Below, in pieces: positions 32,570 to 50,752 of a DNA stretch of 64,000 nucleotides (positions within the stretch are counted from its first letter, which is position 1; the number at the start of each line of letters is the position of its first letter). Both the position numbers and the translations under genes were made by a program. The stretch is from Clostridia bacterium (lineage in GTDB: Bacteria; Bacillota; Clostridia; Monoglobales; Monoglobaceae). Below the pieces are notes generated by a model, which had not been told where the DNA came from, did not search any database, and saw nothing but the letters and a program-made list of their open reading frames with translations. The stretch spans positions 6,417 to 70,416 of the forward strand of contig JAZNBG010000035.1 in assembly GCA_045586925.1 (NCBI GenBank), given 5' to 3'.

Positions 32570-32589
32570 AAGAGGTGAAAAGACAGAAT

Positions 32590-35500
32590 ATGGGCAAATA
32601 TATAGCATATTTTTACATAGACAATCAATTAATGCAATTTGATCTCGACTTGTTGCTAAATAATTGTGTTGATAATTATTTAGGTGAATCAATTCTTCCG
32701 GTAGGAAGTAAGCAACTATTTCCCATTAAAACAGAGAATAAAAAATATTACCTTTATGGGAATTTTAGCAATTGGAAAATTGTTTGTAACGGAAGTGAAG
32801 TCGGAGAAAAAGTTGAAATATCACATGGAAGTTACATCAATTTTTCATCTAAGAAAAGCTCCTATTCTGTTTTGATATCAGAAACAGCTAACTTTAGTAT
32901 ATATAATAATTGTTTGGAAATTCAAAAAAATCAGAATATCTTTATAGGTAGGGCTCCGGAGAGCAACATTGTAATAGATATTAACGATAGTGTATCAAGA
33001 AAACATGCAGCAATAAGATTAGATGCATCAGGCAATGGCTTTGTTGAGGATTTGTCACGTAAAACAGGTGTTTTCCTAAATGGAAAAAGAATTGTTTCAA
33101 GCGAAATAAAATGTGGGGACATTATTCATATAATGGGTGTGTCTATATGTTTTATGGGGACATTTCTTGTTGTTCCTAAAAATATTGTTACAAACGGGAT
33201 GAAAGAGGTCAAGTCTTTTAATGTTGCGCAGCCAACAGATAAAGAGCTTGAAGATACTTATGCAAGGACACCAAGAATATTAAAGTCATTGGATAGAAAC
33301 AAAATAATTATAGATGCACCTACACAGCCTCAAAAATCCAAACAACAACCTTTTATTCTGGTTGCGGGACCTTCTGCGACAATGGCATTAGGTATGATGG
33401 CTAGTTTTGGAGTAACTTTAGCTAATGCACTGAATGGTGGAAACATATCTTCAACTATTACCGGTGGTGTAATGGTTATAAGTATGTTGTTGGGTTCTTT
33501 AATGTGGCCTTCTTTACTTAGAAATTACACTAAAAGACAAGAAATCGCAAATGAAAAGTATAGAGTAGAGAAATATAAATACTATTTGTCGGAAAAAGAA
33601 GCAGAAATAAGAAAATCCTACGAAAGAAATTGCAGAATATGGAATGAAAATCTTTTGCCAGCACCCGATAAATTGTCTCAAATTGTTTTTGAACGAGGTA
33701 TAAATCTTTGGGAAAGAACATTTACAGATGAGGACTTTCTGCAGGTTAGACTTGGAATAGGTGCCAAATTATTTGAAACAGAAATCCAACATCCAAATAA
33801 AGGCTTTACATTGCATGATGACGCATTGATAGATGAAGCAATAAACTTAGCAAACAAATATAAAATGTTAGAAAATGTTCCAATTAGCGTATCATTAATA
33901 AACCAAAGAACAGTTGGAATAGTTGGAGAAAGTGAAAAAATACATAATACACTTAGATGTATGATTCTAAACACGGTTGCACTTCACTCACCTGAGGATG
34001 TAAAGATTTGTGTTATTTGTAATGAACTTCAAATTGAGCAGGTAGAGTGGATAAAAGATTTGCCTCATTGTTGGGATTCTGCTAAAACAACACGATATTT
34101 TGCAACTAATAATATGGAAGCACAAAGACTGCTCAATGATATGGATGAGAAAATTCAAGAAAGAGAAGAATTGATTGACAAAGATGCAATCAGAACCCCT
34201 CATACCATAGTTGTTGTTTTGGATGAAAAAGTAGTTGAAAATATACCTTTTTATAGATACTTAATTGATTCCAAAAACAATGTAGGCATATCCTCTATTT
34301 TTATTGCAGAACACTTTAATAGAATACCTAAAGAGTGTACTGCAATAATTCAAAACGAAAAAGATATATGCGGAATTTATACAAAGAATGAAAACGATAA
34401 TAGATTTGTTTGTTTCAAATCTGATGAGTTTAAACTGACGGATGCTAAAAAAATCAGTCAGAGTATGTCTGAGATTCCGGTTAAGGTTGAGAAAACAAAA
34501 CTTAGTGTTCCTAACCGTGTATCATTTTTGGATATGTATAAGGTGGGAAATATTGAGAATCTTTCAATTGAACAAAAATGGGCAAATAATATGTCAGACA
34601 AAACGCTTGCTGTTCCTATTGGAATAAAAGCAGGCGGAGAATTGTTCTGTTTGGATATACACGAAAAACACCATGGTTGTCACGGATTAGTTGCCGGAAT
34701 GACAGGCTCGGGTAAAAGTGAATTTTTACAGGCATTTATATTATCAGCATTAATTAATTTTAGTCCTAATGAAATTGCATTTGTACTGGTGGACTTTAAA
34801 GGTGGAGATATGGCTCGACCATTTTTGAAGGTTCCGCATCTTTCTGCAACTATATCAAATCTATCCGAAAATATTTTGTATAGAGCATTGATTTCTTTGG
34901 AGGCAGAAGTAAAATCAAGACAAAAAATATTTAATGAAGCCGCATCATTGTTGGGCATTGATAAAATTGATATTAATTCATACCATAAATATTTTAAGGA
35001 AGGTAGATTAACATTACCATTACCACACTTAGTAATTGTAATAGATGAGTTTGCACAATTGAAATCTCAACAACCTGAATTCATGGCTAAACTTGTTGAA
35101 ATAGCTCAGGTCGGAAGAAGTTTAGGAATTCATCTGATATTAGCAACGCAAAAACCGAGCGGTGTTGTTGATCCGCAAATATGGAGCAACTCAAGATTTA
35201 AAGTATGTTTGAAAGTGTTGGATAAGCAGGATAGTACGGAAATGATAAACAGACCGGATGCTGCTTTAATTAAATCTCCTGGACGTGCTTATGTTCAGGT
35301 CGGCTATGATGAAATTTTCGAACAGTTACAGTCAGGTTATAGCGGTGCTGATTATGTTGAACAAAAAGAGTATACAGATGATGAAGATGTAACAATAAAA
35401 CTTATAGATTCTGCTGCTATGCCAATTAGAAGCGCTCGTAGTATATCAGGAAATCTTAAGAGTGGTAAGACACAGTTAGAAGAAACTATAAATAAGATTG

Positions 35501-37239
35501 TTGAAATCGCTGATGAAAAGGGATTAAGTGTAAAGCCTTTGTGGTTGGAGCCACTAAAGGAAACAATATATCTTACAGAATGTGTTGATAAGTTATACAC
35601 AGATTCTTTCGAAATTTGTTGGGATCAAGATTTAGATATCTCAACTACATTGGGAATCATCGATATAATTGAAACACAGAAACAGATACCTTTAAATATT
35701 TCATTGCCGCAGAGCGGACATATTGCTATTTATGGTTCTTCTGGAACTGGAAAGACTACATTGTTACAAACAATTATTTTCTCGCTGGCAACAAAATATT
35801 CACCGGAACTGTTAAACATTTTTGCTTTTGATTTTGGCGGACGCAATTTAGGGAATTTATCGCTTCTTCCGCATTGCGTTAACGTAGCTTTTGGCGATGA
35901 AGAGGACAAAATTTCATATATGTTTGAGCAGATACTTGAATGTATCGAATCAAGAAAAGTTTTGTTTGCAAAAAATAACTGCGCTACATATGAATCGTAT
36001 TTAGCAACAACAAAAAATAAACTTCCTGCAGTTCTTTTGGTGCTGGATAACTATGCTATATTCAGAGAAAAAATGTTCAAGAATGAAGATGATTTAGTTA
36101 GAATTGTTGCTAATGCAAAGGCGTACGGAATATATTTGATCGTTACAGGAAATAGCAAGAATGCAATTTATTACAAAGTTTCTGAACACATATCAAATAA
36201 TATTACTTTGCGTATGAATGATAAAATGAATTACCGTGATATATTAAATGTTTCTATACCTATTGAACCTGATAATATCAAAGGAAGAGGGTTGACAGTC
36301 TTTAATAAAAAAGCGGTAGAAATTCAGGCAGCACTTCCGTTGGAAGCAGAGAACGAGGCTGACAGAGCTGAAAAGCTGAACAAAATATACACTGCTATGT
36401 CACAGGCATATAACGGAACCAATGTGGCTAGTGTTTACTCTTCTTCAACTGAAAATAGTAAATCTAATATTTCAGAAGAAAATAGTACAATTAAAACATC
36501 TGTTATTTCAACAAGGAAAGTTCCGTCAACACTTCCTATTGTTAATGCTGATGATCATACAATTGTTTGTGGTTCTTCTGTTGTAAGCGGTCAGCTTCAA
36601 GGGTTTGAAATGCGTAATACTACAAATGTATTTATAGGTGTTAATGGTTCTGAATATCCAAATCGATTGCTTGAAAGAATTATTAATTTAAACAATGCTG
36701 CATTTTACGATATTTGCTCCTCATCATCGTTAGAAGGTGAATTTATTACATCGGTAAATACGGAATCTGAAATTCATGAAATGCTTCAAAATCTCGTTTA
36801 TGAAGTTAATGATCGAGAGAGTGAACTTCAAATGTTGCAGGCTGCGAATGTCGATGATTCTGAAGTATACGGATATATGCAAAAATATAAGAGGATTTTC
36901 TTGTTGATAAGAAGTTTCTCTAAGTTCTATGATGAGATAAGTGATGATGATTTAAAATTGTTGTTGACAATGTTGAAGAAGCAACGTCATCTAGGTATAT
37001 ATATTCTCACCATAGATGATATTGAAAGTATAGAACCATATTGTGATACAGCTTTATACATTGAATTAATAAAAACCGAAAAAGGCGTTGTTCTTGGTGG
37101 CAATATTAGTGATAAACAGGCGGCTCGATTGTGTAAACAATTCTCTGAAATACCTGTTGCAGAAAGAAACAAGAAACTGTCTGATAACAATGCATTTATG
37201 TATAATGATGCAAAATGGTCAGTAATTGAAATCAATTAA
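32590..37239 (+). CDS. essC: FHA-domain FtsK/SpoIIIE-family ATPase, EssC/EccC-like type VII secretion translocase
   Basis: FHA motif IGRAPESNIVI..SVSRKHAAI..TGVFLNGKRI, then two TM helices. P-loop 1 is GMTGSGKSE with VIDEF. P-loop 2 is GSSGTGKTT with LVLDNY. A third ATPase-like region lacks a P-loop lysine. ATG 32590 was chosen; GTG 32575 is an alternative. Confidence 0.85.
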   Translation: MGKYIAYFYIDNQLMQFDLDLLLNNCVDNYLGESILPVGSKQLFPIKTENKKYYLYGNFSNWKIVCNGSEVGEKVEISHGSYINFSSKKSSYSVLISETANFSIYNNCLEIQKNQNIFIGRAPESNIVIDINDSVSRKHAAIRLDASGNGFVEDLSRKTGVFLNGKRIVSSEIKCGDIIHIMGVSICFMGTFLVVPKNIVTNGMKEVKSFNVAQPTDKELEDTYARTPRILKSLDRNKIIIDAPTQPQKSKQQPFILVAGPSATMALGMMASFGVTLANALNGGNISSTITGGVMVISMLLGSLMWPSLLRNYTKRQEIANEKYRVEKYKYYLSEKEAEIRKSYERNCRIWNENLLPAPDKLSQIVFERGINLWERTFTDEDFLQVRLGIGAKLFETEIQHPNKGFTLHDDALIDEAINLANKYKMLENVPISVSLINQRTVGIVGESEKIHNTLRCMILNTVALHSPEDVKICVICNELQIEQVEWIKDLPHCWDSAKTTRYFATNNMEAQRLLNDMDEKIQEREELIDKDAIRTPHTIVVVLDEKVVENIPFYRYLIDSKNNVGISSIFIAEHFNRIPKECTAIIQNEKDICGIYTKNENDNRFVCFKSDEFKLTDAKKISQSMSEIPVKVEKTKLSVPNRVSFLDMYKVGNIENLSIEQKWANNMSDKTLAVPIGIKAGGELFCLDIHEKHHGCHGLVAGMTGSGKSEFLQAFILSALINFSPNEIAFVLVDFKGGDMARPFLKVPHLSATISNLSENILYRALISLEAEVKSRQKIFNEAASLLGIDKIDINSYHKYFKEGRLTLPLPHLVIVIDEFAQLKSQQPEFMAKLVEIAQVGRSLGIHLILATQKPSGVVDPQIWSNSRFKVCLKVLDKQDSTEMINRPDAALIKSPGRAYVQVGYDEIFEQLQSGYSGADYVEQKEYTDDEDVTIKLIDSAAMPIRSARSISGNLKSGKTQLEETINKIVEIADEKGLSVKPLWLEPLKETIYLTECVDKLYTDSFEICWDQDLDISTTLGIIDIIETQKQIPLNISLPQSGHIAIYGSSGTGKTTLLQTIIFSLATKYSPELLNIFAFDFGGRNLGNLSLLPHCVNVAFGDEEDKISYMFEQILECIESRKVLFAKNNCATYESYLATTKNKLPAVLLVLDNYAIFREKMFKNEDDLVRIVANAKAYGIYLIVTGNSKNAIYYKVSEHISNNITLRMNDKMNYRDILNVSIPIEPDNIKGRGLTVFNKKAVEIQAALPLEAENEADRAEKLNKIYTAMSQAYNGTNVASVYSSSTENSKSNISEENSTIKTSVISTRKVPSTLPIVNADDHTIVCGSSVVSGQLQGFEMRNTTNVFIGVNGSEYPNRLLERIINLNNAAFYDICSSSSLEGEFITSVNTESEIHEMLQNLVYEVNDRESELQMLQAANVDDSEVYGYMQKYKRIFLLIRSFSKFYDEISDDDLKLLLTMLKKQRHLGIYILTIDDIESIEPYCDTALYIELIKTEKGVVLGGNISDKQAARLCKQFSEIPVAERNKKLSDNNAFMYNDAKWSVIEIN

Positions 37240-37255
37240 ATAGGAGGTGTATAAT

Positions 37256-38044
37256 ATGAATTTTTCTGACAAATCTTTACATTTAACATATGATGAGTTT
37301 TATGCATTAATGTGTTTGTTAGGTGCAAAAAGTGTTCAAGGAACTTTTGTTGAAAATCATAATAATATATCTCCAAATGATTTCGAGAATATATGGGCAG
37401 TCTGCGAAAAATCACTGATTTCTAAAGGATATATGACATTAGACGGTGAGGATTTGCAGCTGGATATTAGTTTATATAGCATTATAACAGCATGTGTGAA
37501 TGCCGAAAGAAAATATAGTGTACAATTGTCAAAAGATAAATCCAATATTATTGATACAGTTTTTTATGATGGAAATAAGGCAATGGTATGTATCAATAAT
37601 TGTGATGAAAAGAAAGAGGTTTATTTAAGTTATTGCAATAAAAAGAAATCTTTTGATAATGTGGTTAAGGAAATTCCGGATATTACACAAAATATGCTTA
37701 ACGAAAAATCTGCTGAAATTACCCTTTCACAGCAGGAATATTTCACACTCATGTCTAGTGCTAATTTGGGGGACTATACCAAGGCTCGAAATCTATTCCC
37801 TGATGATATGGAAGAAGAATATTTAATGGATTTGATAAACACATTAAAAAATTCTTATGGGTTACTATCGGTTAATGAATTTGAAGATGAGGAAATTAGC
37901 ACTTACAGCATTTTATTTGGAAAAGAATCTTTATGGGCTATTTATGCACAGGATGAAGAAACAATATCCTTTAAATTGGTATCCAAAACTGATTTAGAAG
38001 ATAGCCTCGCGCAAACTTTTGGTTATGACGGAGGTGGCAAATAA
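37256..38044 (+). CDS. Soluble acidic protein of unknown function (possible EspG-like secretion chaperone)
   Basis: No TM segments. The N-terminal LTYDEFYALMCLLGAK loosely recalls the EspG N-terminus. Its position between the essC-like and yukD-like genes is suggestive. ATG 37256 follows AGGAGG. Confidence 0.25.
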   Translation: MNFSDKSLHLTYDEFYALMCLLGAKSVQGTFVENHNNISPNDFENIWAVCEKSLISKGYMTLDGEDLQLDISLYSIITACVNAERKYSVQLSKDKSNIIDTVFYDGNKAMVCINNCDEKKEVYLSYCNKKKSFDNVVKEIPDITQNMLNEKSAEITLSQQEYFTLMSSANLGDYTKARNLFPDDMEEEYLMDLINTLKNSYGLLSVNEFEDEEISTYSILFGKESLWAIYAQDEETISFKLVSKTDLEDSLAQTFGYDGGGK

Positions 38045-38045
38045 A

Positions 38046-38303
38046 ATGACTGAAAAAATTACGTTATCGGTATGTGTACTAGGAATTAATAAAAATTGTG
38101 ATTTTTCTGTTCCGACAAATATGTCAGTTAGAGAAGCAATTAAGTTAATGAAAAAGGTGATAACCGAAGAATATTGGGGTAACTCACCTATGCCAAAGAG
38201 CAGAATGAATTTGATGAAGTTGTCTGATCTTGAGGTATTAAATGATTCATTGAGTTTTGCCCAACTCGGTATTTCAAGTGGAGAAAGATTGATTTTTGTT
38301 TAA
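38046..38303 (+). CDS. YukD/EsaB-like ubiquitin-fold T7SS protein
   Basis: 85 aa. The pattern CDFSVPTNMSVREAIKLM ... LGISSGERLIFV parallels B. subtilis YukD (which ends CGITNGDRLEIL). ATG 38046 follows GGAGG. Confidence 0.65.
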   Translation: MTEKITLSVCVLGINKNCDFSVPTNMSVREAIKLMKKVITEEYWGNSPMPKSRMNLMKLSDLEVLNDSLSFAQLGISSGERLIFV

Positions 38304-38317
38304 GGAGTGTAAAAAAT

Positions 38318-38614
38318 ATGGCAACGTTTAGAATTAACTATTCAAGAGTTATTTCGCAAGCTAACTCTATGAATAATTTAAGTGGCGATCTTTCTTCTGA
38401 AATACGTAGGTTAGAAAATATGTTAAGCGAAGCTCGAAGTAATTGGAAAGGTCCAGCATCAGAAACATTTCAAAGACAATTAAGTAATTTAATAGGAGAT
38501 ATGAAGAACACAAAAAGTAAAATGTCAAGTGTTTCAAGTACAATTAAGAGTGTCGCAAGAAGGATACAAGCAGAAGATGAGCGAGCTGCTGAAAGAGCAA
38601 AAAAACTGAAATAA
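38318..38614 (+). CDS. WXG100-family protein (paralogue 1)
   Basis: 98-aa helical hairpin with a central W-K-G (SNWKGPASETF). Confidence 0.7.
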   Translation: MATFRINYSRVISQANSMNNLSGDLSSEIRRLENMLSEARSNWKGPASETFQRQLSNLIGDMKNTKSKMSSVSSTIKSVARRIQAEDERAAERAKKLK

Positions 38615-38632
38615 GAATTTGGAGGTGGAAAT

Positions 38633-38743
38633 ATGGAAGCTGCGGCTGCAACACCGATTAATTCAGTAGCAAGTACAGTGGTACCTATAGCGGTTGCTGT
38701 GCTTGTTGGAGTGGCAATTTTCGCTTTTTTAAGGCGAAAGTAA
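38633..38743 (+). CDS. 36-aa single-pass membrane peptide (not in the ORF track)
   Basis: ATG 38633 lies 6 nt after GGAGGTGG. It reads MEAAAATPINSVASTVVPIAVAVLVGVAIFAFLRRK: a hydrophobic helix followed by an RRK anchor. Confidence 0.5.
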   Translation: MEAAAATPINSVASTVVPIAVAVLVGVAIFAFLRRK

Positions 38744-38809
38744 AGATTAACTTAGGGTTATAAAATAATTATTATAACAAAATTATTTTTCGAAAGGAGC
38801 AAATTTATT

Positions 38810-39121
38810 ATGGCAAACGCATGGTCAGTAACCACAGAAAGACTTACATCTTCTGCAAACATTTTGGAGGAAAAAGTCGCAACGTACAATTCAGAATGGG
38901 GCAAACTTTACACAGAGGTTCAGAATTTAAAATCCTCACAGTGGCAGGGTATCGCAAGTGATGCATTCAACGCAAAACTTGAGTCCTACAAAAATGATTT
39001 TGAAGAATTAGCAAAAGTATTGAACAGCTATAAAGATTTCTTGAAATCAGCAGCAGAAAGATATGAGAAAACAGAAGAAGCAGTAAAAGATGCAGCTGGA
39101 AATCTTAATGCCGGAATATAA
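38810..39121 (+). CDS. WXG100-family protein (paralogue 2)
   Basis: 103 aa with central W-Q-G (SSQWQGIASDAF) and a C-terminal YEKTE (YxxxE) motif. Confidence 0.8.
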   Translation: MANAWSVTTERLTSSANILEEKVATYNSEWGKLYTEVQNLKSSQWQGIASDAFNAKLESYKNDFEELAKVLNSYKDFLKSAAERYEKTEEAVKDAAGNLNAGI

Positions 39122-39145
39122 ATAAAATTTTAGGAGGATTTTAAA

Positions 39146-39445
39146 ATGGCTACAATTAAAGTTGATTCAACAGTAATGAGAGACAAAGCAGGCACATTTA
39201 AGAATGTTGCTAACACAATAAAAAATTTAACAGATGAAATGACTCAGGAGATAGAAAGTTTACGTTCAGCATGGGAAGGCGAATCCGCTGAAGCAACTGT
39301 ATCAAAATTTAAAAGTTTAGCTTCAACATTTGAAGAAAAGTTCAATACAATTAACCAGTATGCATCTTTCCTTGAGGAAGCAGCTAATGCTTATGACGAT
39401 GCAGAAAAGGCTGTCGCTCAGGGAGCAGAAGGCACACAGGCTTAA
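39146..39445 (+). CDS. esxA: WXG100-family protein, EsxA-like (paralogue 3)
   Basis: 99 aa with central W-E-G (SAWEGESAEA) and a C-terminal YDDAE (YxxxE) motif. Strong AGGAGG RBS. Confidence 0.8.
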   Translation: MATIKVDSTVMRDKAGTFKNVANTIKNLTDEMTQEIESLRSAWEGESAEATVSKFKSLASTFEEKFNTINQYASFLEEAANAYDDAEKAVAQGAEGTQA

Positions 39446-39461
39446 TTTGAAGTTTGATAAA

Positions 39462-39506
39462 CACAGAGGCATATAAAATGCATATCTGAAATTATATGTC
39501 TCTGTG
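39462..39506 (+). promoter_or_regulatory. Intercistronic 15-bp stem-loop after the esxA-like gene
   Basis: CACAGAGGCATATAA / TTATATGTCTCTGTG (one G-U pair) with a 15-nt loop and no T-run. It is flanked by GAAGTTTGA direct repeats. Confidence 0.5.
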
Positions 39507-39531
39507 AAGTTTGAATTAAGGAGGTGTAAAG

Positions 39532-40791
39532 GTGCCTTACATAAAAGTTGACACAAGGAGATTATCCAACTTTGGAAATGTTGCATCTTCTACAAGAGGT
39601 AGAGTTGGTAATATAAAATCTTCATTTTCCTCTATTGGGAGTTCTCTTGATTGGGATGTAAAGGCTTGTTCTGGTATCAATAGGACAATAAGCCAAATTA
39701 ACAACGAACTTTCAGCAGAGATGTCGAGTTTAAGGAGAATTGAAACTTTTTTTGATTTGGCAGTTAGGAAATATAATGACGCCGAAAAATCCAAAGAAAA
39801 ACTATCAAAAATTCCTCAAACGAGAAGGGTAGCTACTCTTGGTCCAGGAGGTAGAATGAATAATACAACTAAAAATGTTGCATTATTATCTGTTTATAAA
39901 AATAACAAAGCCAGTATAACATCCCAGGTAAAAGTGAAAGAAAATTCCGAATGGACAAAACTTCTCAAGAAAATAGCAAAAAAAGCAGGTTTCGCTGGCT
40001 CCATTTACGGAATTTTAAGTGGAGAATCTGAAACCATTCAACATATAAAAGATGGAGAATATGCAAAAGCGATGCAGAGCTTTGCTGGAGTGGCGAAAGG
40101 TGTAATTAAAACTGTTCCAAAGATATTTGATAAATATGGAAAGATGAAAAAAGCATCCCATTTATTGACCCCTATGCAGAAATTAAAAAATTGGGGGAAA
40201 TCAATAGTTGGATTAGATGATATGATAAAAGCACCTTCAAAAGCTTCAAAAGTAACATCAAGAATCTATAATAATATGCAAAAGTTAGATATAAAAAAAC
40301 TTGGCAAGGTTACGAAGTGTGATGTTATTATAAGTAGCATTGTAAGTATTATTGGTAATGCCTCTGAATATATGGAAGGCAAGATAAGCGCTGCGAGAGC
40401 GGCAGCTGAAACCATTGGAGAAACTGTAATAGAAATTGGAAAAACCGCACTACTGTATAAAGTAGTTGGTGTTGCTGCAACTGCTGTAGCAAGTGCTGCA
40501 GGCATAGCTGCTGTTCCTGCAATTGCAGTAGCCGGTGCTGTAGTTGTGATTAGTTGGGGCATTGATAAGTTGACAGAAAAACTAACAGGAAAAAATTTCA
40601 CTGAATGGTTATCTGATGGAATAATTGATGTTGCTTCATACGTCGGCAAGTCAGTGAAACAGGTTGCAAATACTGTAGTTCCAGCAATTCGTAATACCTG
40701 TACCAATGTTATAAACAAGGCTGGTGAATTCTTCGGAAACGTAAAAAATGGCGTGAATAATTTCTTTGGAAAATTAAGATTTGCATTTTAA
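39532..40791 (+). CDS. Putative T7SS substrate: N-terminal WXG100/LXG-like helical domain fused to a C-terminal Gly/Ala-rich membrane-active region
   Basis: The N-terminal ~85 aa form a helical hairpin with the turn LDWDVKA and YNDAE (YxxxE). The C-terminus has AAETIGETV..LLYKVVGVAATAVASAAGIAAVPAIAVAGAVVVISWGI, a glycine-zipper-like hydrophobic hairpin. GTG start after AAGGAGG. Confidence 0.5.
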   Translation: MPYIKVDTRRLSNFGNVASSTRGRVGNIKSSFSSIGSSLDWDVKACSGINRTISQINNELSAEMSSLRRIETFFDLAVRKYNDAEKSKEKLSKIPQTRRVATLGPGGRMNNTTKNVALLSVYKNNKASITSQVKVKENSEWTKLLKKIAKKAGFAGSIYGILSGESETIQHIKDGEYAKAMQSFAGVAKGVIKTVPKIFDKYGKMKKASHLLTPMQKLKNWGKSIVGLDDMIKAPSKASKVTSRIYNNMQKLDIKKLGKVTKCDVIISSIVSIIGNASEYMEGKISAARAAAETIGETVIEIGKTALLYKVVGVAATAVASAAGIAAVPAIAVAGAVVVISWGIDKLTEKLTGKNFTEWLSDGIIDVASYVGKSVKQVANTVVPAIRNTCTNVINKAGEFFGNVKNGVNNFFGKLRFAF

Positions 40792-40809
40792 AAAAAGGAG
40801 TGAATTTAA

Positions 40810-41079
40810 ATGATTAAAGATTTATTGCCGGTTGGTAGTGTAGTTTTACTTAAAGGTGGCATAAAAAAGTTAGTTATTATGGGGATTAAGCAGGCTAACG
40901 CTGAAGAACCTGATGTTGAATATGACTATGCAGGAGTAATGTATCCAGAAGGATATTTGGGAAATGATACCCTTTACCTTTTTAACCACGCTGATATAAA
41001 TGATATTATTTTTACTGGATATACCAATCCTGAACGTGATGAGTTTTTATTAGAAGTAGAAAAATTATACAATGATTAA
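40810..41079 (+). CDS. DUF4176-like small protein (family commonly encoded in Firmicute T7SS loci)
   Basis: The opening LLPVGSVVLLKGGIKKLVIMG and the size (89 aa) fit DUF4176 as I recall it. Confidence 0.55.
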   Translation: MIKDLLPVGSVVLLKGGIKKLVIMGIKQANAEEPDVEYDYAGVMYPEGYLGNDTLYLFNHADINDIIFTGYTNPERDEFLLEVEKLYND

Positions 41080-41863
41080 TGCAGTTGCTTTTTCAAATGT
41101 TGGGAATATCAGGAGTAACCACGAAGACAATTATTTACTTGGCGTTGGCAACCACATTGACGAAGTGATACAGAGGCAAATGAGAAATAATCTCTACATG
41201 CAGAAATCCACCTATACGGGTGATGCAGGTGTATTTGCAGTTTGTGATGGTATGGGTGGACATGCTTCTGGAGAGGTTGCAAGTTATGCAGCTATTTGCT
41301 GGTTAAACAATAAAGCTAATTTATTGCTGAATTCTCAACCTACAGAAATAATCAGTTGCATAACAGAATTGAATTCACATATATGTAATGAAGCTGATAA
41401 ATCCTCATGTTGTAACAACATGGGAAGTACTTTAAGTGCAATGATAATCAATGGCAGAAGTATTCATACCATTAATGCCGGAGATAGCCGTATATATTCC
41501 TTTAAAAATGATAAATTATCACAGATAACTACAGACCACACTGAGGGACAGCGATTATTGGACCTTGGATTACTTACAATGAATGAGTTGCCAGAATTTT
41601 CGTCACGAAAATCGTTATATAAGTACTTGGGACGAAAGGGAGAATTGATAGCTGATGTAGTAGATATTAGTGGTAGTGATGGGTTGTATATGATCTGCAG
41701 TGACGGCCTTACGGATGCACTTAATGATTGCGAAATTGAGGGAATATTTTTAAAACGTGATTCAATTTCGGATATCGGACAAGAGCTAATGGATTCTGCT
41801 TTAGCGAAAGGAAATTTATGTGCTGATAATGTGACGTTATTATTAGTTGAAATATCTTACTGA
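41072..41863 (+). CDS. PP2C-family Ser/Thr protein phosphatase
   Basis: AVCDGMGGHASGEVAS, GDSRIY and ICSDGLTD metal-binding motifs. Overlaps the upstream gene by 8 nt. Confidence 0.85.
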   Translation: MINAVAFSNVGNIRSNHEDNYLLGVGNHIDEVIQRQMRNNLYMQKSTYTGDAGVFAVCDGMGGHASGEVASYAAICWLNNKANLLLNSQPTEIISCITELNSHICNEADKSSCCNNMGSTLSAMIINGRSIHTINAGDSRIYSFKNDKLSQITTDHTEGQRLLDLGLLTMNELPEFSSRKSLYKYLGRKGELIADVVDISGSDGLYMICSDGLTDALNDCEIEGIFLKRDSISDIGQELMDSALAKGNLCADNVTLLLVEISY

Positions 41864-43653
41864 TGAAAGAAGGGATAAATTTGATAGGAAAAACCATTTT
41901 AGGTTATACCATTGAGGAAGAAATTGGTTCGGGTGGTTTTGGAACAGTTTATAAGGCTTATAAAAGGGACGAATCCGGAACATTTATTAGAGCAATTAAA
42001 CATATATCCCTTCCTACAAAAAAACAATACAACGATGTACTAAATTCAATGGGTGGAGATTATGCTAAGGCAGATAACTATTTCAATGATATATTGAACG
42101 ATCTCGTCAGCGAAATAAAGATATTATATAATCTTACAGAGCAAGGAGTTCTAAACGTTGTAAGATATACTGATCACCACATTGAGAAACAACAGAACCC
42201 TATCAAATATGATATATACCTTTCTATGGAATATCTAACACCATTTGACGAATATATCCAAACAAGCAAACTTGCGGTTAGGGATGTTATAAAATTAGGA
42301 AAGGATATTTCAGCTGCACTTATCGCTTGCCATAAGAATACCATTATGCATCGAGATATTAAAGATGAAAACATCTTTGTATCTAACGATGGCACATATA
42401 AATTAGGAGATTTTGGGGTTTCAAAAAAAATGCAAGACAGCTCAAGGGCTGAAAGTATGAAAGGTACACCTAATTATATCGCACCTGAAGTGTATTTAGG
42501 AAAAGGCAAATATGATTGCACTGTCGATATATACTCATTGGGGATTGTATTATACAAGCTTCTCAACTATAATCGTAATCCGTTTTTGCCTGAATATCCG
42601 TTGGAATACAATAGTGTAGATGAAGATAAAGCTTTTGAAATGCGTATGAAAGGAGATACGCCTCCTGCTCCGCTTAATGCAAACAATAAACTTGGCGAAG
42701 TAATTTTGAAAGCTATAAGCATTAGAGAAAATCGCTATAACGATGCAGCCGAGCTATATGAATGCTTAAATGAAATCGAAAAAAGCTTAACAAACGAGGA
42801 ACTTAATAAGGTTGTTATATCTCCAATAAAGAATATTGTTGATAAAAAGCCTGAACCTACACCACAGATTCAGAGTGACAAAAATTTAAAAGAAACTATT
42901 GGTGAAGATTATAATGTAACCAATCAGGAAGAAAAAGAGACAGGAAATGGCGCTCTTTTTGAAACTCATGGAGATGATTATACTCCTCCGGTAATAAAAA
43001 GAGAAGAGTCCCAAACAGAATCTATAGTAACAAAGGACGAAGAAGCAGAAGATTGCATAGAAGATGTTGAACAGGAAAAGCCATTAGTGAAAACAAAAAC
43101 AAGAAAGAAAACTTTGCTATATGTCGGCATGGTTTTGGCTGTATTTGTAGCATTGCTTGGATTTAAAATAGCAAACAATATAATGTCAAAAGATAATTGG
43201 ACCGGATTTAGTCATGTATATAATGTTACTGCTGAAGGAAAATATGCAGACGGAAAAAGCGAAGATGAAACAGGAGAAAAATTTGAAATAGATTCAGAGA
43301 CAATTAAAATGGCTTTGGAAGATAATATTCCTAAAAAATTGCCATTAGATCAAGAATATAACTTTGAATTTACAATATATTCACCTGATATGCCAGAGAG
43401 CATAATGGTTTTAGCCGGTAAAGGTGGCGGATATGTTAATTTCGAATATATATCTTGTGCAGAGGAAACAAGCAAGGCATATATAAAATTTCCGTGGGAG
43501 TTTCAAAGTAACCTTAATGGAGAAACTCTGTATTCCCCAGGAGAGAAAATTAGATTTAGAATTGTGGTAGAATACAGAACGAAAAACGATGATGGTTCTA
43601 CTCGTTATGAGAAAATCTATCTTGATAAAACAGCTTTAACATTAACAAAATAA
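41863..43653 (+). CDS. Hanks-type Ser/Thr protein kinase 1 (single TM, extracytoplasmic C-terminal domain)
   Basis: GSGGFGTVYKA, AIKHI, HRDIKDENIF, GDFGVS and YIAPEV. TM segment LLYVGMVLAVFVALLGF. TGATG overlap with the phosphatase gene. Confidence 0.9.
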   Translation: MKEGINLIGKTILGYTIEEEIGSGGFGTVYKAYKRDESGTFIRAIKHISLPTKKQYNDVLNSMGGDYAKADNYFNDILNDLVSEIKILYNLTEQGVLNVVRYTDHHIEKQQNPIKYDIYLSMEYLTPFDEYIQTSKLAVRDVIKLGKDISAALIACHKNTIMHRDIKDENIFVSNDGTYKLGDFGVSKKMQDSSRAESMKGTPNYIAPEVYLGKGKYDCTVDIYSLGIVLYKLLNYNRNPFLPEYPLEYNSVDEDKAFEMRMKGDTPPAPLNANNKLGEVILKAISIRENRYNDAAELYECLNEIEKSLTNEELNKVVISPIKNIVDKKPEPTPQIQSDKNLKETIGEDYNVTNQEEKETGNGALFETHGDDYTPPVIKREESQTESIVTKDEEAEDCIEDVEQEKPLVKTKTRKKTLLYVGMVLAVFVALLGFKIANNIMSKDNWTGFSHVYNVTAEGKYADGKSEDETGEKFEIDSETIKMALEDNIPKKLPLDQEYNFEFTIYSPDMPESIMVLAGKGGGYVNFEYISCAEETSKAYIKFPWEFQSNLNGETLYSPGEKIRFRIVVEYRTKNDDGSTRYEKIYLDKTALTLTK

Positions 43654-43698
43654 AAGCAATATGTTGATAATTTTGAAATTAAGAAAGAAGGGATAAAG

Positions 43699-45585
43699 TT
43701 GATAGGACAAACAATTTTGGGATATACAATCGAAGAAGAAATAGGTTCAGGTGGCTTTGGCACAGTATATAAAGCGAGAAAAAGTAACCAATCAGGAACT
43801 TATGTGCGTGCAATTAAACATATATCCCTTCCTACAAAAAAACAATACAATGATGTTTTGAACTCAATGGGTGGAGATTATTCGAAGGCGGACGATTATT
43901 TTTCGGATATCCTAAAAGATATTGTTGGAGAAATTCAAATATTAAATAACCTTACTGAACAAGGTGTTCGTAACGTTGTTTGGTATTATGAAAATCAAAT
44001 AGATGAGTGCCAATCTCCACTAAGGTATGACATATATATTTTAATGGAATATCTAACCCCGTTTGATGAATACATACAAGTAAATGAATTTACGGTGAGA
44101 GATGTAATAAAACTAGGTAAAGATATTGCAACAGCACTTGTTGCTTGTCATAAAAATAATGTTATACATCGTGATATTAAAGATGAAAATATATTTGTTG
44201 CAAACGACGGAACATATAAATTAGGTGATTTTGGAGTATCAAAGAAACTTCAAGACCGTTCCCGGGCTGAAAGTATGAAAGGTACACCAAATTACATTGC
44301 ACCAGAGGTATATTTGGGTAGAGGAACCTACGATAATACTGTAGATATATATTCACTTGGGATAGTGTTATATAAATTACTTAATTATAATCGTAATCCA
44401 TTTATGCCTAAATATCCTGAACCATTCAACAGCAATGATGAAGATGTTGCCTTTGAAAACAGAATGAAGGAATTAACACCAGAACTTCCTCAAAATGCTG
44501 AAAACAGTCTTGGTAACATCATTTTGAAGGCTATTGGAAAGCGTGATGAACGTTATGATTCAGCAACAGATTTTTTAGATATTCTTATGGAAACTGAAAA
44601 AAGCTTAACAAACGAGGAATTGAACAAGGTTATAATCACACCTGTAGCAAACGATAAACAGCAAACAGCAGGAACAGTGAATAAAGAAAGTAATATTCCT
44701 CTGAAAGAAACAATTGGTGAGAATTATGAGGTTACGTCAAATGTTGTTAAGGGACAAGGAAATGGGAATCTTTTTGAAACTCAAGGCGAAAAATATGTTC
44801 CACCAGTATTGCCGGATGAGCCAAAAAGGATAATTCATGAAGCAAAAGCGGAGCCTCCTAAAATAGAAACACCCAAAGAAGAAAAATATGAATATGATTA
44901 TGCTCCAAAAGGTCCTCGTACTGCACCACCAGAAGAACCGCATGTTGAACCTATTCAAAAAGGAAGTTTTGATTGGTTATTATATGCTACACCTTTTGTG
45001 ATTTTATTGGTATATATCGTATTGTTTTTCGTGTTACTACCAAAAGCTTATGATAACACAGTATCATTTATAGATTGGGCAATTAAAAATCCGCAGGATT
45101 TGCTTGAAGCGATGAAATCGTCTGATAATGTATTGCCGCCAATATATAAGGTTATTTTCCTTAAATTATTAAATATAGCGTTGTTTTCAGGGTTGGTTAT
45201 ATCGTTATATTTCATCGGAAGAAAACTTCATTTTTCTAAACCAAATTATGCATCCAATGCAACATTGATAGACAAAGAAGCTTACTATTTGTCCTTGGAA
45301 ATATACGAAGAATTAAAGGCTGAATCTATACCCAATACGTCAGATATTATATCTTCTGTAAAAGTAGTACATGACAGATTGAAAAATGATAGCTCTTTTG
45401 GTATAGGAAATCAAAGTGTGATTCGTTGCGAACAGGAAATTGAGTCACTATTAAGAGTTGTTCAGTCAAATATTGCAGGTTTGAAAAATGATAGTACATT
45501 TTCTGGCTCAAAACAGACTATACTAACTTCCTGCAACAGAATAATGGCAAAAATCAAAATGAGAACAGAGTTAAAAAAGAGATAA
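43699..45585 (+). CDS. Hanks-type Ser/Thr protein kinase 2 (paralogue; different multi-TM C-terminal half)
   Basis: The kinase domain is nearly colinear with kinase 1 (same G-loop, HRDIKDENIF, DFG, APE). The C-terminus has two or more TM segments and a distinct tail. TTG start within a duplicated GAAAGAAGGGATAAA leader. Confidence 0.9.
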   Translation: MIGQTILGYTIEEEIGSGGFGTVYKARKSNQSGTYVRAIKHISLPTKKQYNDVLNSMGGDYSKADDYFSDILKDIVGEIQILNNLTEQGVRNVVWYYENQIDECQSPLRYDIYILMEYLTPFDEYIQVNEFTVRDVIKLGKDIATALVACHKNNVIHRDIKDENIFVANDGTYKLGDFGVSKKLQDRSRAESMKGTPNYIAPEVYLGRGTYDNTVDIYSLGIVLYKLLNYNRNPFMPKYPEPFNSNDEDVAFENRMKELTPELPQNAENSLGNIILKAIGKRDERYDSATDFLDILMETEKSLTNEELNKVIITPVANDKQQTAGTVNKESNIPLKETIGENYEVTSNVVKGQGNGNLFETQGEKYVPPVLPDEPKRIIHEAKAEPPKIETPKEEKYEYDYAPKGPRTAPPEEPHVEPIQKGSFDWLLYATPFVILLVYIVLFFVLLPKAYDNTVSFIDWAIKNPQDLLEAMKSSDNVLPPIYKVIFLKLLNIALFSGLVISLYFIGRKLHFSKPNYASNATLIDKEAYYLSLEIYEELKAESIPNTSDIISSVKVVHDRLKNDSSFGIGNQSVIRCEQEIESLLRVVQSNIAGLKNDSTFSGSKQTILTSCNRIMAKIKMRTELKKR

Positions 45586-45602
45586 AAAGGAGCGAATAAA
45601 TA

Positions 45603-46196
45603 ATGGCACATCAAGTAGTTGAACTGGAATGTCCAGGCTGTGGAAAACCCATAACAACAAGTACAAAACAATGCCCACAATGTTTTAGGGAGATTGTAAT
45701 CACCACCTTTAATAGTGTAGCATCTATGTCACCGTTGGATATAAACAAATATGCAAGTGCATATAGAAAAGCTTTAGCTGGAAATCCGGATAATAAAGAT
45801 TTGAACACATCAATAGCATTTTGTTACTTGAAATTAAAACTGTATGATAAAGCGTTACCTTGCTTTGAAAAAGCTATTGAAGACAATTTTGATAATTCAG
45901 AAACATATTTTTATGCGGCTATATGCCTGCTGAAAGGTAAAAAAGCATTTCTTACTCTTAGAACTGATATTGATAAGATTGAAGAGTACATACAAGCTGC
46001 AATCATGATAGAGCCTAAAGCTATCTATTATTACTTTTGGGCATATATAAGATACGATCATCATTTTAGAAAGGCGTATAATATGAGTCCAAATTATAGG
46101 GAGTTATTATCACAAGCTACACAAATAGGATTATCACAAACTGATGTACAGGAATTGTATAGTACTTTAGGAATTGACCGTCCTGCACAGTTATAA
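45603..46196 (+). CDS. Zinc-ribbon plus TPR-like repeat protein
   Basis: CPGCGKPITTSTKQCPQCF is followed by TPR-like helices (AFCYLKLKLYDKALPCFEKAIE). Confidence 0.5.
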   Translation: MAHQVVELECPGCGKPITTSTKQCPQCFREIVITTFNSVASMSPLDINKYASAYRKALAGNPDNKDLNTSIAFCYLKLKLYDKALPCFEKAIEDNFDNSETYFYAAICLLKGKKAFLTLRTDIDKIEEYIQAAIMIEPKAIYYYFWAYIRYDHHFRKAYNMSPNYRELLSQATQIGLSQTDVQELYSTLGIDRPAQL

Positions 46197-46228: not shown

Positions 46229-47422
46229 TTGATCTGTAAAAAATGTGGAATACGATTAGAAGAAGATGCATTGTTTTGTGGCAATTGCGGAAGCAAAGTA
46301 GAACCTGATTCTGCTAAAACCGCGGTTGAGGATTCAAGTCATGAGTTTGTTTACCCAGAGATACCTATGCCTTCAAAAACAACAACGGTAAAGAGGAAAA
46401 ATAACATGTTGATTCCAATAATATCAATTTCTGTTGTTGCTATTGTTCTAATTGTAGCTTTGATATTATTTTTACTACCAAAATTTTTGAATACTAGTGA
46501 AGATGTGGGCACAGATGTTACAACACAGGATGTTATAACAAAAACAGAAGATTTATCTGATTCCTCTTCAAGTACTGAAAGAACAGAAATAGAAGATAGT
46601 GAAATCAGAAATATTATAAATCAATATTCAAACTACACCGATTTTGGTATATATGTTCATAATTTAAACAATGATTATGAATATGGTTTTAATGATGATT
46701 CTGTGTTTTTAGCTTCTGCTATGTGTCAGGTTGTAATATTAGATACCTTATCAAGAACTGTAGAAGATAACAATATAGATATTAATCAGGAGGAACTATA
46801 TTTTAGCTATATACCTAATGGTAAAGAAGCTCCTACGAGCAAAAATGAATCTGACACATATATAAATTTAAAAAAATGCATAGAAGATGTTGCAGTCTAT
46901 GGAGATAATAACAAATCTAATCATATCGTCGATTATATTGGACAAGTCAATAATGTTAACAATGGATTTGACGTAATAAACAATATGCTTAGACGTAACG
47001 GATATACAGATACACATATTAACAGGAAAACTTTTATTAATCCGGATTATATTGATAATAGCGTACCTGCTAATACGACTACTCCAAGCGAAATAGCAGA
47101 TATATTTGAAAATCTAATCAACAACGGCGGATTTGGAAATAAAAATTATATGATGAACATATTCAAATCTGTTGCACTTGATGGACAACCTATAGGCTTG
47201 AAAAAATGTGTGCCTGCGTATTACGATATTTGCAATGTAAATGCTTTGAACTCGCAATCCACTAACAATGTTGCTATTATTAGCGATGGTAATACGGAAT
47301 TAGCTATTGCAATACTATCAACAACCGATGAATCAAAAACTGATGTAGAAAATAACGAAGATCGTGAAATTGTTATAGCAGAATTAATGAAATACATATT
47401 AGATACACAGTTTGAAAATTAG
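46229..47422 (+). CDS. Zinc-ribbon / TM / degenerate class-A beta-lactamase-like ectodomain protein
   Basis: CKKCGIRL..CGNCG, then TM segment LIPIISISVVAIVLIVALILFLL. The ectodomain is colinear with the next protein, but SxxK is SAMC and no KTG is present. Confidence 0.5.
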   Translation: MICKKCGIRLEEDALFCGNCGSKVEPDSAKTAVEDSSHEFVYPEIPMPSKTTTVKRKNNMLIPIISISVVAIVLIVALILFLLPKFLNTSEDVGTDVTTQDVITKTEDLSDSSSSTERTEIEDSEIRNIINQYSNYTDFGIYVHNLNNDYEYGFNDDSVFLASAMCQVVILDTLSRTVEDNNIDINQEELYFSYIPNGKEAPTSKNESDTYINLKKCIEDVAVYGDNNKSNHIVDYIGQVNNVNNGFDVINNMLRRNGYTDTHINRKTFINPDYIDNSVPANTTTPSEIADIFENLINNGGFGNKNYMMNIFKSVALDGQPIGLKKCVPAYYDICNVNALNSQSTNNVAIISDGNTELAIAILSTTDESKTDVENNEDREIVIAELMKYILDTQFEN

Positions 47423-47431
47423 AGGTGTGGA

Positions 47432-48445
47432 ATGAATAACGAAAGATTAGACCGAAAACAAAGAAAAGTACGAAAAAAGAGATTGTTTATGGTTAAGGTA
47501 ATTGCATTCATTCTTTTTATCGTTATAGTTTTTATTGCAGGATTTTACTTTGGTAAAACATATAGCTCTAAAAGCATTCCAGTAGCAAATTTTGACAATG
47601 AATATTCTGAGGAAAAGAGCAAATTAACTGATAATTCCGATGAATTTGATAAATTAAACATTTTAAAGACGGATTTAGTTAGTATTATGAATAACAAATA
47701 TCCTACTGTAGATTTGTCCTTTGCAATCAAAAATCTTGATACGGGTGCTATGGTAGTACATAATAACAAAAAAATGAATAGTGCAAGCATAATTAAATTA
47801 TTCATTTTAGAAACTGTATATAATGAAATTATTCAAGGTAAGTATGTGCTTTCCGAGGAACGAGAAAAAGAATTGGAAAAAATGATTACGGAAAGTGATA
47901 ATAACGCTGCCAACAACTTTATAGATGACTTTGGTGGACAAAATGAAAAGCGTAAGGTTGATGAAACTAATTTAATTAATAAAACAATAAAAGAAAAAGG
48001 ATATTTGTTTACTGAATTAAATCGAAAAATGCATGATAAAACACCACCAGAAGGTCCGTCGGGATATCAGAATTATACCTGTGTCGAAGATGTATGTAAA
48101 TTCTTAGAAGGAATATACAACAAAACTCTTTTTGAAGAACCATACAATACATATGCTTTAAATTTAATGAAAAATCAAAAAAGAAGAGCCAAAATCCCTG
48201 CTATGATAACAGACGAATATAACGATGTTATAGTTGCAAATAAAACTGGTGAGTTGTCCCAGGTGGAAAATGATGCAGCAATAATAATGAGTGATGATTT
48301 TAACATTATATTTGTGGTATTAACTGATAACATACCATTCAAGGCGGATGGTACAACTGATTATGATTTAAAAGAAGAAGTTCAAAAAACCATTTCTAAA
48401 CTAGGGTTAAAGGTTGTTGAATTTTATAATGCAAATCAGTTTTAA
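47432..48445 (+). CDS. Membrane-anchored serine hydrolase of the class-A beta-lactamase/PBP-like fold
   Basis: N-terminal TM anchor. All three motifs are present: SIIK (SxxK), SDN and KTG. Confidence 0.65.
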   Translation: MNNERLDRKQRKVRKKRLFMVKVIAFILFIVIVFIAGFYFGKTYSSKSIPVANFDNEYSEEKSKLTDNSDEFDKLNILKTDLVSIMNNKYPTVDLSFAIKNLDTGAMVVHNNKKMNSASIIKLFILETVYNEIIQGKYVLSEEREKELEKMITESDNNAANNFIDDFGGQNEKRKVDETNLINKTIKEKGYLFTELNRKMHDKTPPEGPSGYQNYTCVEDVCKFLEGIYNKTLFEEPYNTYALNLMKNQKRRAKIPAMITDEYNDVIVANKTGELSQVENDAAIIMSDDFNIIFVVLTDNIPFKADGTTDYDLKEEVQKTISKLGLKVVEFYNANQF

Positions 48446-48518
48446 GCTTAAAACGCAACTTGACAAAAAATTAGTTCTGACAACAAAACAAAATATATAA
48501 AACAAAGGAGAATAAATT

Positions 48519-50060: not shown

Positions 50061-50720
50061 ATGGGACTTATTGATGGCGCAGCAGCTGCAGCTGAATTCG
50101 CACAATGGCAAGCACAAAGAAAGAACCTGATGAAAGCGGCTAATCCCACTCAGAAAAAGGCAATTAAATACTTTATTCCTGAACCAGGATGCAAAGGTCT
50201 TTTTGACAAAGTATCAGACGAAGAATATGATGAAATCGTAAAGGGTATGGTTAAGTCAAGCAATTCTTATCAGAGAGCTCTTGACAAAATCGGTCTTGAT
50301 GAAAGCGAACTTAAAGAGATTCCTCCGGTTACATTATACGGATACGAAGAAGGCAAGAATAGCTTTTCAAAAACAAATATAGATGGAACATACAGAACTA
50401 ACCTTTACTCCATCACACACTTGTTCTTCTCTGCTACACAGGTTTATATGTATCAGCTCGTTTTAAATACAATGAAGAATGACCGCAAGGAAAGAACTGA
50501 AGAATATTTCTATAAGGATATTACAAACTTCTCAACTCTTTCCGATACTGTTGAGTCTATTACTTTCAAGGGCTGTCAGAATACAGTGCAGAAAGTATCT
50601 GTTGAAGTACAGAAATTCTCTCTTATCGTACCTGGCGACAAATTCACTTGTGCTACATACGGTGATATCGATCAGCAGGTAAGAGCAATGAAAAATAAGC
50701 TTAGAGAAAAGAAACAATAA
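50061..50720 (+). CDS. Hypothetical soluble protein sharing a C-terminal domain with the 48519-49976 product
   Basis: QVYMYQL..EEYFYKDI..VRAMKNKLREKK parallels QLYMYYQ..HEYFYEDI..FVGMRNLIRQKK. Strong AAGGAG RBS. Confidence 0.45.
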   Translation: MGLIDGAAAAAEFAQWQAQRKNLMKAANPTQKKAIKYFIPEPGCKGLFDKVSDEEYDEIVKGMVKSSNSYQRALDKIGLDESELKEIPPVTLYGYEEGKNSFSKTNIDGTYRTNLYSITHLFFSATQVYMYQLVLNTMKNDRKERTEEYFYKDITNFSTLSDTVESITFKGCQNTVQKVSVEVQKFSLIVPGDKFTCATYGDIDQQVRAMKNKLREKKQ

Positions 50721-50752
50721 TTAGTTATAGCGTGCACGCTAAAGGTAATTAT

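Follow-up and report, generated by a model that had tools for sequence, protein, structure and literature searches.

We analysed a 64,000-nucleotide stretch of DNA from a Clostridia bacterium (Monoglobaceae; assembly GCA_045586925.1, contig JAZNBG010000035.1, positions 6,417 to 70,416 of the forward strand), referred to at its full length as the window, and found that one of its genes, here called X419, very probably encodes an exported type VII secretion system (T7SS) effector that is served by a DUF4176 chaperone. From comparative sequence evidence we favour, at a probability of roughly 0.55, the fuller reading that X419 is a polymorphic effector of the atypical T7SS surrounding it, with a DUF4176 chaperone and a membrane-damaging activity. 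An effector, already put forward as a candidate in an annotation made from the letters of the window alone (the initial annotation), is indicated rather than a part of the machinery because the N-terminal domain (N-domain) of X419 heads an RHS toxin that fills this gene slot in one related locus and a TNT toxin in another relative, because the C-terminal three quarters of the protein form a recombining cassette, and because the DUF4176 protein tracks the C-terminal module (C-module). The features on which this argument rests are as follows (aa, amino acids; AF2, AlphaFold2; pLDDT, predicted local distance difference test score).

39519..39524, forward strand: ribosome-binding site AGGAGG with a 7-nt spacer to the GTG start, read from the sequence
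39532..40791, forward strand: open reading frame of the putative effector gene X419, 419 aa, whose predicted export domain at the N terminus is followed by variable helices in the middle, then by a hydrophobic hairpin and a tail of amphipathic character
39532..39795, forward strand: WXG100-like helical hairpin, aa 1-88, with the LDWD turn at aa 39-42 and Y81-x-x-x-E85; putative T7SS export/targeting domain
39910..40656, forward strand: divergent allelic cassette, aa ~127-375, ~750 bp, delimited by blastn against the related locus L009
39949..40221, forward strand: middle helical domain, aa ~140-230, allele-variable, four helices at AF2 pLDDT 63-83
40312..40446, forward strand: conserved polar helices, aa 261-305, with N276 invariant and E293/E297 near-invariant in alignments; candidate DUF4176 contact region
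40462..40566, forward strand: hydrophobic hairpin of Ala/Gly/Val type, aa 311-345, built as helix-Pro-helix and turning at P329, from hydropathy and the family alignment
40567..40788, forward strand: amphipathic helical tail, aa 346-419, ending FFGKLRFAF, its helices predicted at low confidence
40810..41079, forward strand: small DUF4176 protein, 89 aa (PF13780, E 1.5e-24); cognate chaperone, as judged from its family

Gene model and domain layout of X419

The 419-residue product listed in the initial annotation is confirmed at this locus, where the open reading frame, the GTG start and the AGGAGG are all present; the start is further supported because every homologue begins with MPYIKV or VPHIKV. 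The strings quoted there were located at aa 39-45 (LDWDVKA), aa 81-85 (YNDAE) and aa 312-344 (VGVAATAVASAAGIAAVPAIAVAGAVVVISWGI). Scans with Pfam, NCBIfam and PADLOC returned nothing significant for X419, and no relative was found among PDB sequences, searched with the protein alone and with two profiles. AF2 run with a 46-sequence alignment was confident only for residues 1-88 and ~140-230, and with a 14-sequence alignment gave an unusable model (pLDDT 37). A hidden Markov model (HMM) of the middle region matched only 12 of the 145 best family representatives. An antisense open reading frame at 40266-40718 was rejected as a gene and judged a by-product of GC-rich Ala/Gly codons, because comparable antisense frames occur in unrelated alleles.

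A WXG100-like N-domain

The N terminus had been described as a helical hairpin shaped like the neighbouring WXG100 proteins, and the analysis agrees with that description. AF2 with the 46-sequence alignment placed helices at residues 8-38 and 49-88 with pLDDT 82-96. Alignment of the N-domain profile to the three WXG100 classes of the locus by hhalign gave a probability of 85% (E 6e-6, 87 columns), in a register where W41 meets the tryptophan of WXG and Y81xxxE meets the YxxxE found in WXG100 class three; an N-domain HMM also picked up WXG100 genes of the window itself, at E 2e-5 and 6e-4. EsxA/EsxB were the best Foldseek matches (target-normalised TM-score 0.6-0.8), at E>1, such fold matches being unspecific. 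PF06013 matched a few X419 relatives weakly, X419 itself lying below the Pfam threshold. The W-x-G motif is absent from X419: its turn reads L-D-W-D-V, and the domain is fused to 330 more residues.

Among 14 close homologues, residues 1-90 are much more conserved than the remainder, with M1-V6, D40, W41, D42 and Y81 invariant and position 85 a D or E in 14/14. The LDWD turn and the Y-x-x-x-D/E motif are also kept by most of the 145 representatives, and because of this recurrence the features cannot be put down to chance. A search of 1.84 billion representatives with the N-domain profile recovered at least 411 proteins, 159 of them at E<=1e-10, counted as clusters at 50% identity. The match is N-terminal in every one of the 411, which are between 79 and 1611 aa long. 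Neither Pfam nor NCBIfam has a model for the domain. A word-based candidate search with C-module and N-domain alignments gave no matches, a result we put down to candidate selection because the same N-domain profile found the 411 proteins.

The profile check proposed for an LXG domain was negative: neither PF04740 nor the NCBIfam LXG model matched X419, even at E<=1, and the conserved N-domain spans only ~90 aa. We take the N-domain to be the putative T7SS export/targeting domain.

Other cargoes on the same N-domain

Of the 107 family members that reach 300 aa, one bears DUF6531 and RHS repeats, another a TNT NADase and a third an Mbeg1-like hydrolase. The RHS protein is encoded at a locus (L094) with the gene order of the window, namely SPFH/Zn-ribbon, FHA-EssC, YukD-like, three WXG100, slot, slot+1, PP2C, kinase and TPR. 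Its slot holds a 1611-aa RHS toxin bearing the N-domain (E 1e-25) and slot+1 a polytopic DUF6560 membrane protein; in the 20.6 kb recovered there is neither an X419-type module nor a DUF4176 gene. The TNT protein (L008, from a Ruminococcus metagenome-assembled genome, MAG) runs from the N-domain through a Gly-rich hydrophobic region to TNT (E 1.9e-24), again with no X419-type protein in the recovered DNA. Its next gene (11393-11944) encodes a DUF4176 domain fused to an extra ~80-aa N-terminal domain, which could be an immunity or adaptor module.

Other loci multiply or rearrange the arrangement. L095 has three tandem N-domain proteins with unrelated C-termini and separate accessory genes for each, comprising a 9-TM (transmembrane) protein, a 2-TM protein with DUF4176, and a soluble protein with DUF4176. 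Two effector-DUF4176 pairs stand in tandem in L097, and the X419-type effector of L096 has a 2-TM protein next to it and DUF4176 after that. Membrane-protein genes thus follow the effector in several relatives (DUF6560 in L094, 145-aa and 386-aa proteins in L095, a 166-aa protein in L096). In L014 a 238-aa gene lies between effector and DUF4176; no relation of it to the 265-aa protein of the window could be detected. A variable C-terminal region on a conserved N-domain, as LXG toxins have, is therefore what the X419 family displays.

A polymorphic cassette in a conserved island

Blastn to L009 aligned at 94.5% over 9.18 kb and broke at 39910 (codon ~126). Nucleotide identity inside the cassette fell to ~45-65% and returned to 85% from 40657 (codon ~375), the last ~45 aa of X419 being 77% identical in amino acids and 85% in nucleotides. 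Across near-identical islands, amino-acid identity was 33-60% for the cassette and, depending on the comparison, 93-100% or 83-100% for the N-domain. Gene by gene, X419 was 62% identical to its L009 counterpart while SPFH, EssC and the three WXG100 proteins reached 96-100% and two small proteins 79% and 91%; against L001, X419 was 51% identical and its neighbours 80-96%. X419 is the least conserved gene of its island and therefore does not look as machinery would be expected to, and the conservation in step with EssC and constant presence that mark core machinery were not found for it.

A DUF4176 partner that follows the C-module

The DUF4176-like gene reported downstream was recovered as a PF13780 match at E 1.5e-24 and begins 18 nt past the X419 stop codon. 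The solved small DUF4176 protein in PDB (9dcs_A) matches it at E 1e-8. A DUF4176 gene follows the X419-type effector, directly or one gene later, in every locus with downstream DNA recovered. As a separate observation, an inserted radical-SAM protein (2571-3446) separates DUF4176 from PP2C in L014.

Across 8 loci, with non-independent pairs, DUF4176 identity correlated with that of the pre-hairpin region (aa 261-305) at rho 0.87, with the hairpin at 0.74, and only weakly with the N-domain, at 0.27. Comparison of L010 with L012 gave identities of 93% for the N-domain, 7-35% for the C-part, 41-44% for DUF4176, and 88-91% for PP2C and kinase. The two effectors of L097 come with a separate DUF4176 each, and these two DUF4176 proteins share 46% identity. 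Within this small sample, DUF4176 appears to track the effector C-module and to behave as its cognate partner, and aa 261-305 are a candidate for the contact region.

These observations agree with published work. DUF4176 proteins have been shown experimentally to be toxin-specific chaperones (Gkragkopoulou et al., PMC12478183); the membrane-depolarising toxin TelD needs the small DUF4176 protein MQE10_09270 for stability and export, and small DUF4176 proteins were proposed to bind the membrane-inserting helices of such toxins (PMC12478183). In Streptococcus suis, DUF4176 groups match C-terminal toxin types one-to-one, including a pore-former (Wu et al., PMC12482557).

The initial annotation had drawn another conclusion from the DUF4176 neighbour, that X419 might belong to the secretion machine as a structural or tip component. 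The location of X419 inside the core operon fits this, and so does the failure to detect EssA, EssB and EsaA, which leaves some membrane parts unaccounted for. We nonetheless hold it to be very unlikely. X419 shows 51-62% identity where the machinery shows 85-100%, recombination breakpoints fall inside it, an RHS toxin replaces it in L094, and L095 and L097 hold duplicates or arrays of its relatives with unrelated C-termini. Nor is a DUF4176 neighbour a sign of a structural role, because the literature presents DUF4176 proteins as toxin chaperones (PMC12478183, PMC12482557) and X419 is the least conserved gene. An effector with its own chaperone accounts better for these data.

The C-module and its hydrophobic hairpin

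The membrane-damaging part of the proposal concerns the C-module. An HMM of aa 261-419 matched 45 of the 145 representatives, in which a conserved order is seen: polar helices, the hairpin, then a T-G...T-E-x-V-S-D motif and amphipathic helices. The hairpin is the sole segment of its kind in X419, with a Kyte-Doolittle maximum of 2.45 (19-residue window), and a hairpin with a central Pro is present in 45/46 family members. The protein had been said to end in this hairpin; it in fact continues from the hairpin (aa ~311-345) through 74 residues of predicted amphipathic helix. The glycine zipper that had been assigned to it fits only in a loose sense. Ala-rich small-xxx-small repeats are present in X419 (for example A318-A322-A326-A330-A334) and in 36/46 relatives, and the strict motif, defined as (G/A/S)xxxGxxxG or GxxxGxxx(G/S/T) (PMC12744356), is missing from X419. 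Weak matches among the relatives were to DUF6861 (two proteins) and to a Gly-zipper_Omp family (one).

In the mechanism that we propose, DUF4176 would bind the hydrophobic or amphipathic C-module in the producer, keeping X419 soluble, stable and harmless. The N-domain, probably paired with one of the upstream WXG100 proteins, would offer the export signal to the FHA-EssC ATPase, and the DUF4176 chaperone would remain in the producer. Outside, the hairpin and its flanking amphipathic helices would enter the target membrane and permeabilise or depolarise it, as TspA, TelD, TelE and EsxX do; the targets might be other bacteria or host cells.

An improbable alternative makes X419 a secreted translocator or helper, whose hairpin would insert so that other cargo could cross and which, not being toxic, would need no immunity gene. 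Its single copy at a fixed position beside core genes in most loci would suit such a role, as would a dedicated chaperone where no immunity gene was found. Type III translocators, which combine hydrophobic hairpins with dedicated chaperones, provide the analogy. The Gly-rich hydrophobic region between N-domain and TNT in L008 suggests that such regions can be used in translocation, and modelling of TspA also retrieved the translocator YopB (PMC7456083). A universal helper would seem unneeded, however, where RHS or TNT occupies the slot and the recovered DNA holds no X419-type protein (L094, L008); X419 is moreover the most variable gene of the island, and the X419-type effector of L096 is followed by a 2-TM protein, as it would be by an immunity gene.

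Several points weigh against a membrane-damaging effector, which we still prefer. The PDB searches found no sequence similarity between X419 and any solved T7SS toxin. The strict glycine-zipper motif occurs 0 times in X419 and is present in 16 of 46 relatives. AF2 pLDDT is below 50 over the C-terminal ~190 residues (231-419), which is compatible with a region needing a partner or a membrane and proves nothing. The loci were mostly retrieved by searching with X419 itself, so that its near-universal presence in this island type is not independently established. No gene of the island type co-varies with the cassette as an immunity gene would, and the window has no homologues of the accessory proteins found beside the effectors in L014, L094, L095 and L096. 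The toxicity, secretion and membrane action of X419 are all predictions from sequence.

The immunity question

That X419 lacks an obvious immunity gene had been noted at the outset, and the window indeed offers no cognate candidate. There is no space for a further gene between the X419, DUF4176 and PP2C genes, no orphan cassettes occur in the window, and DUF443, DUF5079/5080 and DUF5085 are not found among the island genes. The genes considered for the role include a group further downstream.

50061-51556: soluble 219-aa protein (p219) and a 2-TM YidD-domain fusion (176 aa), then a 79-aa 3-TM protein (p79)

Both p219 and the YidD fusion are hypervariable, 42% and 30% identical to L001, where EssC is 90%. 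As immunity proteins they were rejected for varying independently: between L003 and L004 they are 67% and 53% identical while the effector is 100%. Likewise p79 (51317-51556, three TM segments, weak Imm_superinfect match) keeps 84% identity where the effector has only 51%, and L003 and L004 lack it. A polytopic Zn-ribbon protein of 485 aa was set aside because L001 keeps just an 87-aa zinc-ribbon fragment of it, and a 36-aa TM peptide (38633-38743) because it is absent from several loci. The lack of a cognate immunity gene is the main unexplained point.

A hypervariable cassette without a co-varying immunity gene is also what a surface-displayed variable protein would show. After T7SS export X419 might be re-anchored in the producer membrane by its hairpin, present its variable middle domain and serve in adhesion, kin recognition or as a decoy. 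Its diversity would then stem from phage, from host immunity or from self/non-self discrimination, and not from a toxin-immunity arms race. TspA does associate with the producer envelope in a T7SS-dependent manner (PMC7456083). We consider surface display, and this origin of the diversity, a little less probable even than the translocator role: the hairpin belongs to the variable cassette and is no less divergent than the middle domain, the same N-domain bears bona fide toxins, and DUF4176 partners have been documented so far for toxins only.

Within the effector reading, a more speculative synthesis is possible, which we offer tentatively and think rather doubtful as a whole. The LDWD/YxxxD-E domain would be a third class of type VII toxin-targeting domain, as yet without annotation, beside LXG and stand-alone WXG100, a mycobacterial-style composite signal contained in one hairpin and paired with dedicated WXG100 paralogues in a kinase/phosphatase-controlled T7SS subtype with SPFH that uncultured gut Clostridia possess. 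The X419 module, its commonest cargo, would do without a classical immunity protein, and self-protection would come from DUF4176 together with target specificity or regulated firing.

Comparison with known systems

The closest parallels are TspA of Staphylococcus aureus and TelD of Streptococcus intermedius, LXG-type T7SSb toxins that depolarise membranes. TspA, a protein of 469 aa that was modelled on colicin Ia, has a polymorphic C-terminal domain and carries one or two TM segments close to its C-terminus (PMC7456083). X419 resembles TspA in size and shares with both an N-terminal helical export domain, a polymorphic C-terminus with one or two hydrophobic segments and a T7SS link, and with TelD a small DUF4176 partner (in TelD's case MQE10_09270). 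It differs in its N-domain, ~90 aa and WXG100-like in place of an LXG domain of ~200 aa, and in the absence of DUF443 immunity genes. Its upstream helical genes are WXG100 (PF06013), unlike the Lap genes (DUF3130/DUF3958 or DUF5344/DUF5082) of LXG loci, and unlike the T7SSb of TspA and TelD the host system has SPFH, active-type kinases and PP2C and lacks EssA, EssB and EsaA.

TelE (Streptococcus gallolyticus), EsxX (S. aureus ST398) and LXG1-CT3 (S. suis), LXG toxins that form pores and have a glycine zipper, likewise have as their toxic region a small-residue-rich hydrophobic segment near the C-terminus, which soluble cytoplasmic partners bind before export: TipE for TelE, ExiAB for EsxX and DUF4176 for LXG1-CT3. 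X419 differs from them in having no strict glycine zipper, no DUF5085, DUF5079 or DUF5080 genes and no detected sequence similarity. WXG100/ESAT-6 proteins, including those with the T7SSa composite signal, share with the N-domain a two-helix hairpin of ~90 residues, a Trp at the turn and Y-x-x-x-D/E past helix 2; the X419 domain stands apart in its fusion to a 330-residue C-terminal region, its L-D-W-D-V turn and its score below the Pfam threshold.

A conserved trafficking N-domain with exchangeable C-termini, including RHS and enzymatic toxins, is also the pattern of polymorphic toxins, among them those with 'LDXD', a T7SS toxin N-domain named by Zhang and Aravind and typified by S. aureus SACOL0281/EsaD. 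L-D-x-D is literally present in X419 at L39-D40-W41-D42, the likeness to EsaD/LDXD being one of motif alone. Unlike polymorphic toxin systems, the window has no immunity gene immediately downstream of X419. Pore-forming colicins such as colicin Ia and the T domain of diphtheria toxin are helical, with an Ala/Gly/Val-rich hairpin of ~35 residues near the C-terminus. For X419 this resemblance is a lead only, with no sequence or reliable structural match and a low-confidence model of the C-terminal region.

T7SS membrane toxins with chaperones are already known; the novelty lies in the targeting domain, in the host system and in an arrangement that lacks immunity. The analysis gives a testable function and a name to an unannotated protein family of at least 411 clusters at 50% identity, and would extend T7SS membrane-targeting toxins from Bacilli to uncultured gut Clostridia and to a non-canonical T7SS. 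The published but untested idea that toxin helices which insert into membranes have small DUF4176 proteins as their chaperones gains independent support from this comparison. A sharply bounded 750-bp cassette without a cognate immunity gene raises the question of how producers escape self-intoxication, and the N-domain profile can be used to mine toxin and immunity modules from gut metagenomes.

The secretion cluster and its island

The T7SS cluster around X419 spans 31433-46196 of the window and is non-canonical, with EssA, EssB and EsaA not detected in it. Besides X419 and DUF4176 it contains the following genes.

31433-32569: SPFH/Band-7 protein with a double Zn-ribbon
32575..37239, forward strand: EssC-type FHA and FtsK/SpoIIIE ATPase, 1554 aa, the putative exporter; an open reading frame, with FHA and FtsK_SpoIIIE domains recorded for 90%-identical orthologues
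37247-38044: 265-aa protein without assigned family
38019-38303: YukD-like protein
38318-38614, 38810-39121 and 39146-39445, forward strand: three WXG100 paralogues (Pfam WXG100, E 2e-12 to 2e-14)
38633-38743, forward strand: 36-aa single-TM peptide, between the first and second WXG100 genes
39462..39506, forward strand: stem-loop with a 15-bp perfect stem and no U-tract (RNA fold -22.5 kcal/mol, z -4.05)
41072-41863: PP2C
41863-43653 and 43699-45585: two transmembrane Hanks kinases, active-type
45603-46196: Zn-ribbon and TPR protein

The WXG100 genes fall into three paralogue classes conserved across loci, L003, L007 and L008 among them, A without YxxxD/E, and B and C with YxxxE. The effector N-domain is closest to class C, and both start M-x-x-IKV; the WXG100 paralogues are likely co-secretion partners of the N-domain. 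The 36-aa TM peptide is kept in L001, L002 and L009, longer small open reading frames occupy that position in L011-L013, and it could be a small membrane component like EssA, TseH or TseK. The stem-loop sits where 86 nt separate X419 from the last of the WXG100 genes. It was not called by the terminator scan and may be an attenuator or an mRNA-stability element setting the WXG100-to-effector ratio.

The family of the Zn-ribbon and TPR protein (57-83% identical to the window's) occurs in gut, digester and termite metagenomes. It is not T7SS-specific, because most members were found without T7SS genes nearby; a survey of loci L014-L093 around such homologues met the system in 3/80. Overall the cluster resembles the kinase/phosphatase-containing T7SSc-j (Garrett et al., PMC11217815), without a match to one variant, and the description of T7SSc-j there makes no mention of SPFH proteins.

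The cluster lies in a low-GC island (~20000-53000; GC 0.30-0.35 against 0.42-0.44 in the flanks) bounded by recombinases. Related loci flanked by integrases are L001, L003, L011 and L012, and a mobile or defence island seems to carry the T7SS along. Recombinase and further island genes are listed below.

21242-22648: DUF234 ATPase
22650-25901: type I restriction-modification
26653-27585: KwaB-like
28234-28908: resolvase
29629-30477 and 52675-53535: integrases
53898-55580: large serine recombinase

MAGs of uncultured Clostridia, Flemingiibacterium and Ruminococcus, together with gut metagenomes, are the sources of the related islands. Next to the cluster, at 46229-49976, is a variable block with two Zn-ribbon/TM/beta-lactamase-like (PF13354) proteins and the Zn-ribbon polytopic 485-aa protein. 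Sister islands replace this block with YARHG and Amidase_3 (L001, L010) or with NADase_transloc and Peptidase_M15_4 (L011, L013), and it may encode cell-wall-active accessory enzymes or a second effector set.

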